Source: Eledone cirrhosa
Taxonomy: Eukaryota
Assembly: GCA_964016885.1 (NCBI GenBank)
Contig: OZ024742.1
Coordinates: forward strand, 198,462,001-198,526,000
Direction of reading: 5' to 3'
Length of the DNA stretch: 64,000 nt
Part shown: one piece after another, positions 1-59,222 of the stretch
Layout: each line of letters opens with the position of its first letter
Numbering within the stretch: position 1 is the first letter of the stretch
Position numbers and translations under genes: made by a program
Notes under the pieces: model-generated
What the model was told of the DNA's origin: nothing
What the model saw: the letters and a program-made list of their open reading frames with translations, nothing else
Databases searched by the model: none

Positions 1-3000
1 CCGTCAGTGACCACATGAAAGGTACCAACACATCTATCAGTGACCACATGAAAGATACCAACATATCAGTCAGTGACCACATGAAAGGTACCAACACGTC
101 AGTCAGTGACCACATGAAAGGCACTAACACATCAGTCAGTGACCACATGAAAGGTACCAACACATCAGTCAGTGACCACATGAAAGGTACCAACACATCA
201 GTCAGTGACCACATGAAAGGTACCAACACATCCGTCAGTGACCACATGAAAGGTACCAACACATCAGTCAGTGACCACATGATATGCACCAACACATCAG
301 TCAGTGACCACATGAAAGATACCAACACATCAGTCAGTGACCACATGAAAGGTACCAACACATCAGTCAGTGACCACATGAAAGATACCAACACATCCGT
401 CAGTGACCACAAATGTACCAACACATCAGTCAGTGACCACATGAAAGGTAGCAACACATCAGTCAGTTACCACATGAAAAGTACCAACACATCAGTCAGT
501 GACCACATGAAAGTTACCAACACATCAATCAGTGACCACATGATATGCACCAACACATCAGTCAGTGACCACATGAAAGGTACCAACACATCAGTCAGTG
601 ACCACATTAAAGGTACCAACACATCAGTCAGTGACCACATTAAAGGTATCAACACATCAATCAGTGACCACATGAAAGGTACCAACACATCAGTCAGTGA
701 CCACATGAAAGGTACCAACACATCAGTCAGTGACCACATGAAAGATACTAACACACCCGTCAGTGACCACATGAAAGGTACCAACACATCAGTCAGTGAC
801 CACATGAAAGGTACCAACACATCAGTCAGTGACCACATGAAAGGTACCAACACATCAATCAGTGACCACATGAAAGGTACCAACACATCAATCAGTGACC
901 ACATGAAAGGAACCAACACATCAGTCAGTGACCACATGAAAGATACCAACACATCCATCAGTGACCACACGAAAGGTACCAACACATCAGTCAGTGACCA
1001 CATGAAAGGTACCAACACATCAGTCAGTGGCCACATATGTACCAACACATCAGTCAGTGACCACATGATATGTACCAACACATCAGTAAGTGACCACATG
1101 AGAGGTACCAACACATCCGTCAGTGACCACATGAAAGGTACCAACACATCTATCAGTGACCACATGAAAGGTACCAACATATCAGTCAGTGACCACATGA
1201 AAGGTACCAACACGTCAGTCAGTGACCACATGAAAGGCACTAACACATCAGTCAGTGACCACATGAAAGGTACCAACACATCAGTCAGTGACCACATGAA
1301 AGGTACCAACACATCAGTCAGTGACCACATGAAAGGTACCAACACATCCGTCAGTGACCACATGAAAGGTACCAACACATCAGTCAGTGACCACATGATA
1401 TGCACCAACACATCAGTCAGTGACCACATGAAAGGCACCAACACATCAGTCAGTGACCACATGAAAGGTACCAACACATCAGTCATTGACCACATGAAAG
1501 GTACCAACACATCAGTCAGTGACCACATGAAAGGTACCAACACATCAGTAAGTGACCACATGAAAGGTACCAACACATCAGTCAGTGACCACATGATATG
1601 CACCAACACATCAGTCATTGACCACATGAAAGGTACCAACACATCAGTCAGTGACCACATGAAAGGTACCAACACATCAGTAAGTGGCCACATGATATGC
1701 ACTAACACATCAGTAAGTGACCACATGATATGCACCAACACATCCGTCAGTGACCACATGAAAGGTACTAACACATCAGTCAGTGACCACATGAAAGGTA
1801 CCAACACATCAGTCAGTGACCACATGAAAGGTACCAACACATCAGTCAGTGACCACATGAAAGGTACCAACACATCAGTCAGTGACCACATGAAAGGTAC
1901 CAACACATCCGTCAGTGACCACATGAAAGGTACCAACACATCAGTCAGTGACCACATGATATGCACCAACACATCAGTCAGTGACCACATGAAAGGCACC
2001 AACACATCCGTCAGTGACCCCATGATATGCACCAACACATCCGTCAGTGACCACATGAAAGGCACCAACACATCCGTCAGTGACCCCATGATATGCACCA
2101 ACACATCAGTCAGTGACCACATGAAAGGCACCAACACATCCGTCAGTGACCACATGATATGCACCAACACATCAGTCAGTGACCACATGAAAGGCACCAA
2201 CACATCCGTCAGTGACCACATGATATGCACCAACACATCAGTCAGTGACCACATGAAAGGCACCAACACATCCGTCAGTGACCCCATGATATGTACCAAC
2301 ACATCAGTCAGTGACCACATGAAAAGTACCAACACATCAGTCAGTGACCACATATGCACCAACACATCAGTCAGTGACCACATGAAAGGTACCAACACAT
2401 CCGTCAGTGACCACATGAAAGGTACCAACACATCCGTCAGTGACCACATGAAAGGTACCAACACATCCGTCAGTGACCACATGAAAGGTACCAACACATC
2501 AGTTAGTGACCACATGAAAGGTACCAACACATCAGTAAGTGGCCACATGATATGCACTAACACATCAGTAAGTGACCACATGATATGCACCAACACATCA
2601 ATCAGTGACCACATGAAAGGTACCAACACATCCGTCAGTGACCACATGATATGCACCAACACATCCGTCAGTGACCACATGATATGCACCAACAGATCCG
2701 TCAGTGACCACATGAAAGGCACCAACACATCAGTTAGTGACCACATGAAAGGTACCAACACATCAGTTAGTGACCACATGAAAGGTACCAACACATCAGT
2801 CAGTGACACATGAAAGGTACCAACACATCCGTCAGTGACCACATGAAAGGTACCAACACATCCGTCAGTGACCACATGAAAGGTACCAACACATCAGTCA
2901 GTGACCACATGAAAGGTACCAACACATCAGTCAGTGACCACATGAAAGGTACCAACACATCAGTCAGTGACCACATGAAAGGTACCAACACATCAGTCAG

Positions 3001-3404
3001 TGACCACATGAAAGGTACTAACACATCAGTCAGTGACCACATGAAAGGTACCAACACATCAGTCAGTGACCACATGAAAGGTACCAACACATCCGTCAGT
3101 GACCACATGAAAGGTACTAACACATCAGTCAGTGACCACATGAAAGGTACCAACACATCAGTCAGTGACCACATGAAAGGTACCAACACATCCGTCAGTG
3201 ACCACATGATATGCACCAACACATCCGTCAGTGACCACATGATATGCACCAACACATCCGTCAGTGACCACATGATATGCACCAACACATCCGTCAGTGA
3301 CCACATGATATGCACCAACACATCCGTCAGTGAACACATGAAAGGTACCAACACATCAGTTAGTGACCACATGAAAGGTACCAACACATCAGTTAGTGAC
3401 CACA
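1..3404. repeat. 33-bp minisatellite (consensus cagtgaccacatgaaaggtaccaacacatcagt), about 100 units, in the IPO11 intron after exon 8; runs off the window edge
   Basis: Directly visible tandem unit with two main variants (aaaggt / atatgc). The long MKGTNTSVSDH and WSLTDVLVPFM ORFs arise from a stop-free unit whose length is divisible by 3. Confidence 0.97.
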
Positions 3405-47559: not shown

Positions 47560-48030
47560 GCCCCACCCCTTTCCAAATACCTACCACTCCTCTATCATAA
47601 AATCAAGCCCCCTTTCTGTCTTCTCCAATGTAATTCCATCATCCTCTATTTCTTCTCCATCCCTCCCTTCAAGTGCCACTGTAACCTCTTAGTTCACAGC
47701 TCCATCCCCACCACTACCTCCCATCCAGATCTCAACCCTGTTTTCATATCTGTCCAGTCATCATCAGCACTACCTCCTTTACTGGATCTTGTGGCTACAC
47801 CTTTCATACTACGGACTCCTTTAGTTGCATTCCTTCTAACCTTATTTGCTCATTGTGCCCGGCCCATTACATCAGCAAGACAGAGCACTGGCTCACAGGT
47901 CACTTCACCAAGCACCTTTGTGGTATTTACATTACAAGCGATTCTTCCATCTGTCACTTTCAGTCTCCTGGATACTCGACCAGCAACTTAAACAAGTTCA
48001 GAGTCTGTCACCACTATGAGTCTAATCCAG
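47560..48030 (+). mobile_element. Degenerate Penelope-like element, GIY-YIG endonuclease region
   Basis: One frame reads TFHTTDSFSCIPSNLICSLCPAHYISKTEHWLTGHFTKHL...HFQSPGYS, matching the PLE pattern F.C.S.N.IY.I.C..C...YIG.T.R.L..RF.EH. Confidence 0.75.
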
Positions 48031-48280
48031 ATTACGCTATGAGCAACAGTTTCTACTTTTATTTTTTTTAAATAATTTTTTAAGCTTCCCCTTAAAAAAT
48101 TGTTCTTCGTTTTGCCTTATTTTCATTTATTGTCTTGTCCTCACTGTTAATTTTCCAAACTTTATCATTAATAATTTGTGTTGAATATGTTATCTCTTCT
48201 TCCCCCTTAATTTATATATATATGTTAAATGATGATGATGATATATATATATAAATTGTCTGAAATCCCTTTAGACATGT

Positions 48281-48385
48281 TGGCTATATCTTCTCTACAC
48301 CTGTTGACAAGCCATGAGAAGGTATGATACCAACACAGTATGGCGAAACATTCTCTTTTTTGAGAATGTCCAGGTGTTATAGTTA
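48281..48385 (+). ncRNA. Full-length type I hammerhead ribozyme candidate with U3-A8 core and predicted stem I/loop II pseudoknot
   Basis: UGGCUAUA-[UCUUCUCU]-ACACCUG-UUGACAA-GCCAU-[GAGAAGG...]-AUGGC-GAAA-CAUUCUC-U6-GAGAAUG-UC-CAGGUGU-UAUAGUUA; all three stems pair. Confidence 0.82.
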
Positions 48386-48613
48386 TAAAGGTGGCTTTTT
48401 TACATTTTAATTTTACCATTTGATTTGACTTTTCGCAGATCGTATATTCTTCACTATAGTGGTTCTACACCCCTTGTAACTGAAAACATACCACTTTTTG
48501 TGTTTTCTTCTCTATATACTGTATTATGAAGAGCCTGGAAATGTTTCCTCAAAGCTCATAAAATTACAGGGGATTAATGCGAGTCTATCTTCGTTTTTTC
48601 ATTTGATATATAT

Positions 48614-48940
48614 ATCATCATCACCGTTTTACATCCGTTCTTCCACGCTAGCATGGGTTAGACGGGTTGTCCTGTTGTGGGCAGTGTCTGGTCGGCTGAC
48701 CATGCCTTGCTCATACAGGAACTGATCTGGCTTGATTTCTACAGCTGGATGCCCTTCCTAACACCAACCACATTTACAGTGAGTGATGGGTGCTTTTTCG
48801 TGGTGCCTACACGTCCACTTTACAGTGTGGGCTGGGTGCTTTTTTGCCGTGGCACCTCCACGACCACCTTGCGGTGGGGGGTGTGGGGGCATATTGTTTA
48901 TATGCTTCAGCTTGTACCCATGGGAGGTCGGGTACTCTGT
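48614..48940 (-). mobile_element. RTE 3'-UTR fragment with (CAT)n tail
   Basis: Near-identical to 26778-27115. Confidence 0.85.
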
Positions 48941-58847: not shown

Positions 58848-59222
58848 CATATATATATAATGGAGGCACATGGCTTAGTGGTTAGAGCATTGGCCTTGCA
58901 ATCGAAAGGTTGTGAGTTCAATTCTCAGACTGGGTGATGTGTTGTTTCCTTGAGCAAGACACTTTATTTCACATTGCTCCAGTTTACTCAGCTGTAGAAA
59001 TGAGATGATAGGGACTAGGGTCCATATCATTCCACTGAGGTTGGTGTTAGGAAGGGCATCCAGCTGTAGAAATCAAGCCAGAATCAGTTCCCGTCCCACC
59101 CTTGCAAGCAGGGAAAAGCGGACGTAAAATGAAATGATGATGATGATGAATGATATATACATATATATATATGTATATATATATATCCATATATATATAC
59201 ATACATATATATATATATACAC

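Follow-up and report, generated by a model that had tools for sequence, protein, structure and literature searches.

Natural hammerhead ribozymes with a U3-A8 core have been reported, U4C is described as weakening but tolerated, and pseudoknots between stems I and II are predicted in ~40% of non-repetitive hammerheads (PMC3088659). Some 1,300 U3-A8 hammerheads lie in Penelope-like elements (PLEs) of Schistosoma (PMC4209133). Animal retrozymes are regarded as non-autonomous derivatives of PLEs (PMC7229834; bioRxiv 10.64898/2026.07.22.740005), and the function of the hammerhead in PLEs themselves has been called unclear (bioRxiv 10.1101/2021.04.23.441226). The notation by blocks (CUGA, GAAA, cleavage site) is that of PMC10085705, and related literature includes PMC6765202, PMC6962438 and PMC3884650.

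The window analyzed here is a 64,000-nt stretch of the Eledone cirrhosa genome (contig OZ024742.1), in which direct reading of the letters placed a hammerhead at 48281-48385 on the forward (+) strand, as are all window features below. Stem I (ACACCUG, 48297-48303, with CAGGUGU, 48371-48377) opens into the catalytic core UUGACAA (U3 U4 G5 A6 C7 A8 A9, 48304-48310), followed by stem II (GCCAU/AUGGC, 48311-48315 and 48340-48344), of which only GCC/GGC is conserved when copies are compared. Stem II and loop II together span 48311-48344. Beyond them, GAA (48345-48347), stem III (ACAUUCUC/GAGAAUGU, 48348-48355 and 48362-48369) and C17 (48370), after which the predicted GUC site would be cut, form a block at 48345-48370. 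The preliminary description had extended stem I outward by a distal helix of UGGCUAUA (48281-48288) with UAUAGUUA (48378-48385), the latter a partner without covariation support, across the bulge UCUUCUCU (48289-48296), and had noticed that UCUUCUC in the bulge is complementary to GAGAAGG (48316-48322) in loop II. The stems, the core and this complementarity were all found as it had given them.

Three stems surround the core and stem I is open, which makes the motif a type I hammerhead; UUGACAA, GAAA and GUC stand for the CUGANGA, GAAA and UH of the consensus, U3-A8 being a reported natural variant. The earlier remark that it is unlike the minimal PLE type also holds, as stem III is stable: helix III has 8 bp in subfamilies A and B and 6-7 pairs in C-E, whereas in the minimal dimer type it is absent or short and palindromic. 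Rfam gave no hammerhead match for the motif at the gathering threshold or at E<=10, a silence consistent with the variant core and the long loop II. Scanned on both strands with relaxed hammerhead criteria, the window gave two matches, this motif and an AT-rich one at ~58650. The second has a canonical CUGAUGA core and AT-rich stems, has a near-identical counterpart at another locus (L208), and may represent another repeat family; a weak tRNA-like match nearby (58869-58932, 29.9 bits) is probably the head of a SINE. At the other end of the window, positions 3-3404 hold a tandem array with a 33-bp period (103 copies, 92% matches).

Repeat family, insertions and Hydra-clade elements

The hammerhead belongs to a repeat with a unit length and period of 516 nt. 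The window copy (48256-48615) is 5'-truncated (unit positions ~147-516), has (TA)n at its bounds and is a ~6% diverged insertion with its fold intact. The unit is non-coding: in the copy examined, stop codons interrupt every one of the six frames. A motif search of the species' own 3.0 Gb genome gave 318 candidates, and all 40 of those scored matched; further searches seeded from other copies and regions brought the total to 93 distinct ribozyme matches, reduced to 87 by dropping six partial ones. This sample is query-biased and a lower bound (at least 87 genomic copies), and an independent pattern search found 11 of its 14 matches already within it. Two hammerheads on the same strand occur at just one locus (L035) among these 87 copies, and long arrays were not seen in this lower-bound sample.

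At its 3' side the window copy directly adjoins an extremely high-copy repeat (48614-48900), presumably SINE-like, whose summed contig depth runs into millions (from three runs on one sample, their type not recorded). On its 5' side, 230 bp upstream and on the same strand, lies a decayed GIY-YIG endonuclease fragment of a PLE (47721-48026; 32% to the ORF at L133, E=1e-8), which we take to be Neptune-like by its cysteine linker.

The family is dispersed, and its copies, partial tandems and inversions among them, lie within (TA)n. Among 86 loci, 33 have an upstream tandem piece on the same strand and 27 an inverted piece; 58 end at one of two fixed sites (close to unit position 430 in 31 and to 515 in 27), and (TA)n follows 49. 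This combination of 5' truncation, inverted truncated copies and a microsatellite target is the insertion pattern described for PLEs (bioRxiv 10.1101/2021.04.23.441226). A short non-coding repeat unit with a type I hammerhead is in turn what characterizes a retrozyme, and the repeat is very probably a non-autonomous PLE of that kind.

Likely agents of its mobilization are Hydra-clade elements. ORFs of this type are abundant in the genome (55,471 candidates, 150 of them scored) and carry DKT and CxCX5C motifs in 719 aa; Pfam did not recognize the ORF, and the ESM Atlas placed it with PLE-like clusters at 0.99. Hydra fragments lie near 7 of 92 unit loci, no real excess over the ~5 expected from their density in the genome; only in orientation is there a bias, six of the seven lying downstream on the same strand. 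A single locus, L019, joins a little over one unit directly, with no (TA)n between, to a Hydra ORF truncated at its 5' end, the kind of product expected from a template switch. The unit does not behave as the pseudo-LTR of an autonomous PLE: the L019 ORF ends in a different hammerhead of its own, and the unit has no real homology to 58 Hydra loci. Nor was an autonomous element sharing the unit's sequence found in the two Hydra families with termini examined; since these carry different hammerheads, the unit's Hydra-clade partner is one that we infer. A 20-nt similarity to one Hydra family falls away from that family's hammerhead and was put down to chance.

One Hydra-clade family (L185-L204 and L205:4300-4345) carries a minimal CUGAAGA hammerhead with a palindromic helix III, ~35 nt before the (TA)n end of the element, and three further distinct hammerhead-like motifs occur near Hydra elements at L186, L188, L190 and L197, the last with a UUGAGAA (U3-A8) core.

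Core positions 3, 4, 7 and 8 across copies

Positions 3 and 8 are U-A in 30 of the 87 copies, U·G in 17, C-G in 29, C·A in 3 and other combinations in 8. Among the C-G copies, 23 carry U4C, many of which also have A·C as the basal pair of stem I, and six are canonical CUGANGA. At the subfamily level the cores read CCGAYGA, UUGACGA and UUGAYAA, the canonical core appearing in none of the five subfamilies. A genome-wide pattern blind to positions 3, 4, 7 and 8 made 14 exact matches: eight CC..G, two UU..G, and one each of CC..A, UC..G, UU..A and canonical. This count is fairer than that of exact-core patterns (canonical in 0 copies, U3-A8 in 8, U3·G8 in 5), because the latter carry U3-subfamily flanks. 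The paralogue comparison proposed in the preliminary description was thereby carried out, and the paralogues are not mostly CUGACGA, with canonical cores in 6 of 87 copies and 1 of 14 core-agnostic matches.

To place these states we used a tree of 80 copies from which the ribozyme columns were left out (seven copies were omitted for short flanks); it is unrooted and its bootstrap had not settled. The window copy falls in a clade of 31 rows (100/99) in which 28 have A8, 28 have U3 and 25 have both; U3·G8 copies mostly adjoin this clade, and C3-G8 copies lie beyond. Because U3-A8 copies form a clade in a tree built on flanks alone, U3-A8 was carried by source elements; judged from the aligned copies, it is an inherited subfamily state and not decay private to the window copy. 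The suggestion that the two core changes had decayed independently is thus at odds with the 25 of 31 clade rows that carry U3 and A8 together. CpG columns diverge by 17.5-25.8%, ~3x faster than other columns; decay of this kind in a source element may therefore be the origin of G8A, and CpG decay of CCGA may account for some copies that look canonical. If the ancestor was canonical, the order would have been C-G to U·G to U-A, a path inferred on an unrooted tree and resting on about one event per step. Rooting by age gave no resolution, as the subfamilies are all 5.5-7.6% from their column majorities. A Fisher's test of position 3 against position 8 (p=8e-7) was set aside because the copies are related.

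CpG decay also enters a reading in which the ribozyme is relaxed: elements would spread without cleavage, core changes would be drift helped by that decay, and the long hairpin described below would owe its retention to something else, such as its recognition by the reverse transcriptase, or be the relic of an inversion. That all subfamilies depart from CUGANGA, that 23 of 87 copies combine U4C with G8, that CpG columns diverge so fast, and that every full copy reads through the cut site all fit such a history, as does the report that eight of nine Xenopus retrozyme dimers stayed uncleaved in vitro (bioRxiv 10.64898/2026.07.22.740005). However, subfamily-level core changes are confined to positions 3, 4, 7 and 8, where natural tolerated variants have been reported (PMC3088659), C3·A8 founds no subfamily (3/87), the number of stem III pairs is higher in the U3-A8 lineage, and the presence of G-U pairs in the long helix suggests pairing at the RNA level. 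We consider a relaxed ribozyme unlikely.

Thirteen catalytic or core-closing positions are identical in all five subfamilies, an invariance that is not significant by itself (P=0.16 at the flank rate, 42/316 columns). The ribozyme diverges by 6.9-8.8% and its flanks by 5.6-8.1%; the two diverging equally fast, the copies have been under no selection since insertion. We predict that the RNA of source copies was likely cut at the GUC site.

Pairing between the 5' arm and loop II

The bulge/loop II complementarity turned out to be part of a longer one. A 5' arm, a (48277-48295; outer 48277-48283, middle 48284-48288, inner 48289-48295), faces strand a' of loop II (48316-48336) with 19 possible pairs, 17 of which are present in the window copy. 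Against 5,000 shuffled loops the long pairing has p=0.0002, and the seven pairs of the preliminary description alone p=0.019 (again 5,000 shuffles). As read from the copies, the 19-bp complementarity is conserved across the family. Changes that preserve the pairing include 11 copies in which both sides of a U-A pair have become C-G, 8 with A-U for G-C and 29 with C-G for U-G; cells changed on both sides number 41 in the extended model against 30 in shuffles, with 11 of 500 shuffles as high, and 23 against 21.5 in the model with distal stem I. On the other four measures, overall covariation score and percent paired among them, neither helix model beats the shuffles, which ignore relatedness. 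Subfamily E mostly has a purine mismatch at one position of the inner pseudoknot. A small subgroup (L085, L098, L099, L100 and L102) has compensated changes in the inner and outer helix together with a different core in each copy.

Distal stem I fares differently. It is intact in subfamilies A, B and C, but one of its pairs is mismatched in D (C·A in 8/12) and two in E (C·A in 17/24 and 21/24), and two pairs have 25 and 36 unpaired cells; the 5' letters mismatched there still pair with loop II. This helix of the preliminary description is therefore broken in two of five subfamilies while its 5' letters keep their loop II pairing. The model built on it, in which a monomer with this helix, its 8-nt bulge and a 7-bp pseudoknot would always be active, does have the best helix sum in the window copy (-29.6 kcal/mol, against -23.9 for the fully zipped arm and loop, loops ignored) and, for its nested part, an energy no more than 1.9 kcal/mol above the minimum. 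It leaves the conservation and compensation of the outer helix unexplained, and we find it very improbable. Of the pseudoknot itself, the complementarity stands; its seven pairs belong to a 19-bp helix, a competitor of the active fold.

In A-form geometry, 19 bp extend over ~53 Å. The linker from a' to stem II measures 3-8 nt (3 nt in 21/26 subfamily B copies) and cannot span 19 bp, so that a single molecule can have the full helix or stem II, not both. The nested minimum-energy fold is the long arm/loop II hairpin and not the hammerhead, with a stem II probability near 0, in folds that cannot score pseudoknots; the hairpin also forms in four of five natural units folded as circles. In helix sums without loop terms, the zipped and active folds lie within ~4 kcal/mol of each other at the median, and the zipped state comes out ahead of both cis folds in 26/80 copies, the window copy being one in which it loses.

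The account that we prefer, with our confidence about evenly divided for and against it, is that of a bistable ribozyme, in which a short pseudoknot would support cleavage and the full zipper would block it, the RNA being copied into (TA)n by a Hydra-clade protein. A source copy would first be transcribed. With only the inner 7-12 bp of arm and loop II paired, which corresponds to the known stem I/II pseudoknot, the RNA would cleave at C17. Zipping to 19 bp would then keep stem II from closing in cis, so that unit-length or circular RNA would be protected. A Hydra-clade reverse transcriptase/endonuclease could prime at (TA)n and copy through the intact site, giving insertions of 1-1.5 units. 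In one lineage, C3U would have produced the U·G wobble, and a later G8A would have restored a Watson-Crick pair.

The short linker is also what would be expected if stem II never had to form in cis. In that case the hammerhead would sense length: the 19-bp helix would always be formed, with the CUGA block in its loop, and in a tandem transcript the preceding unit would supply this block with its GAAA and cleavage-site partners, to form a type II hammerhead with a loop I/3'-tail pseudoknot, so that only more-than-unit RNA would be cut, at the upstream site. In the type II pseudoknot as described, loop I is joined to the 3' tail of stem II (PMC3088659); taken across units, the a/a' pairing has this topology. 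Insertion ends bear on this arrangement. Six of the eight insertions that approach the upstream cut site end <=52 nt from it, against a prior rate of 24/88 per 50 nt (binomial p ~0.007, calculated by hand and post hoc). However, no 5' end falls exactly at the cut site; ends lie 4-47 nt downstream in AT-rich sequence, where microhomology would also explain the junctions, and none of 13 pattern-selected loci begins at the site. Two loci pass it, one of which may be two insertions, and the zipped state is the best by helix sums in just the 26 of 80 copies mentioned, the window copy not among them. We regard length sensing as improbable, on a par with the relaxed ribozyme. If true, it would add to the double hammerhead of helix III a second means of confining cleavage to multimers, and would do so in a family whose 3-8 pair retains a natural series of C-G, U·G and U-A. 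The bistable ribozyme, for its part, bears on how PLEs use a hammerhead without destroying their own template, for which the family offers a concrete, testable switch.

Comparison with described retrozymes, PLEs and pseudoknotted hammerheads

As first posed, the case was one of two published features combined in an old repeat copy: both the U3-A8 core and the pseudoknot are already in the literature (PMC3088659; PMC4209133), and their novelty had been overstated. In the literature searched, we did not find a description of the 516-nt family, of U3·G8 activity or of so long an arm/loop II helix; supplementary alignments of PLE hammerheads could contain similar motifs. What the family provides is natural variation at core positions 3, 4, 7 and 8 among five subfamilies, the wobble intermediate included.

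Metazoan non-LTR retrozymes (PMC7229834; bioRxiv 10.64898/2026.07.22.740005) resemble it in their non-coding, low-GC unit with a type I hammerhead, in the co-occurrence of autonomous PLEs and in more-than-unit insertions. They differ in their ~170-400 nt units, against 516 nt here, and in forming long tandem arrays, where we see dispersed insertions of 0.5-1.5 units; the 8-bp stem III and the non-canonical cores also set the present family apart. Expression as circular RNA is a mark of the retrozyme class; for the 516-nt family the comparison made here is one of genomic copies.

The hammerheads of PLE pseudo-LTRs, which include the U3-A8 hammerhead of Schistosoma Cercyon, share the U3-A8 core, partial tandems, inverted truncated copies and microsatellite targeting, but as described (PMC4209133) they are minimal and need a helix III dimer, in contrast to the stable helix III, long arm/loop II helix and lack of an ORF here. 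Hydra-clade PLEs are similar in their (TA)n target and in having a hammerhead (bioRxiv 10.1101/2021.04.23.441226), and they abound in the same genome; the two families with termini examined differ in their hammerheads and have no real homology to the unit. Pseudoknot-stabilized hammerheads of types I-III, finally, likewise join the stem I side to the stem II side by Watson-Crick pairing, and in the tested examples considered here (PMC3088659) that pairing comprises 5-6 bp, against up to 19 bp here, a length at which it would exclude stem II in cis.
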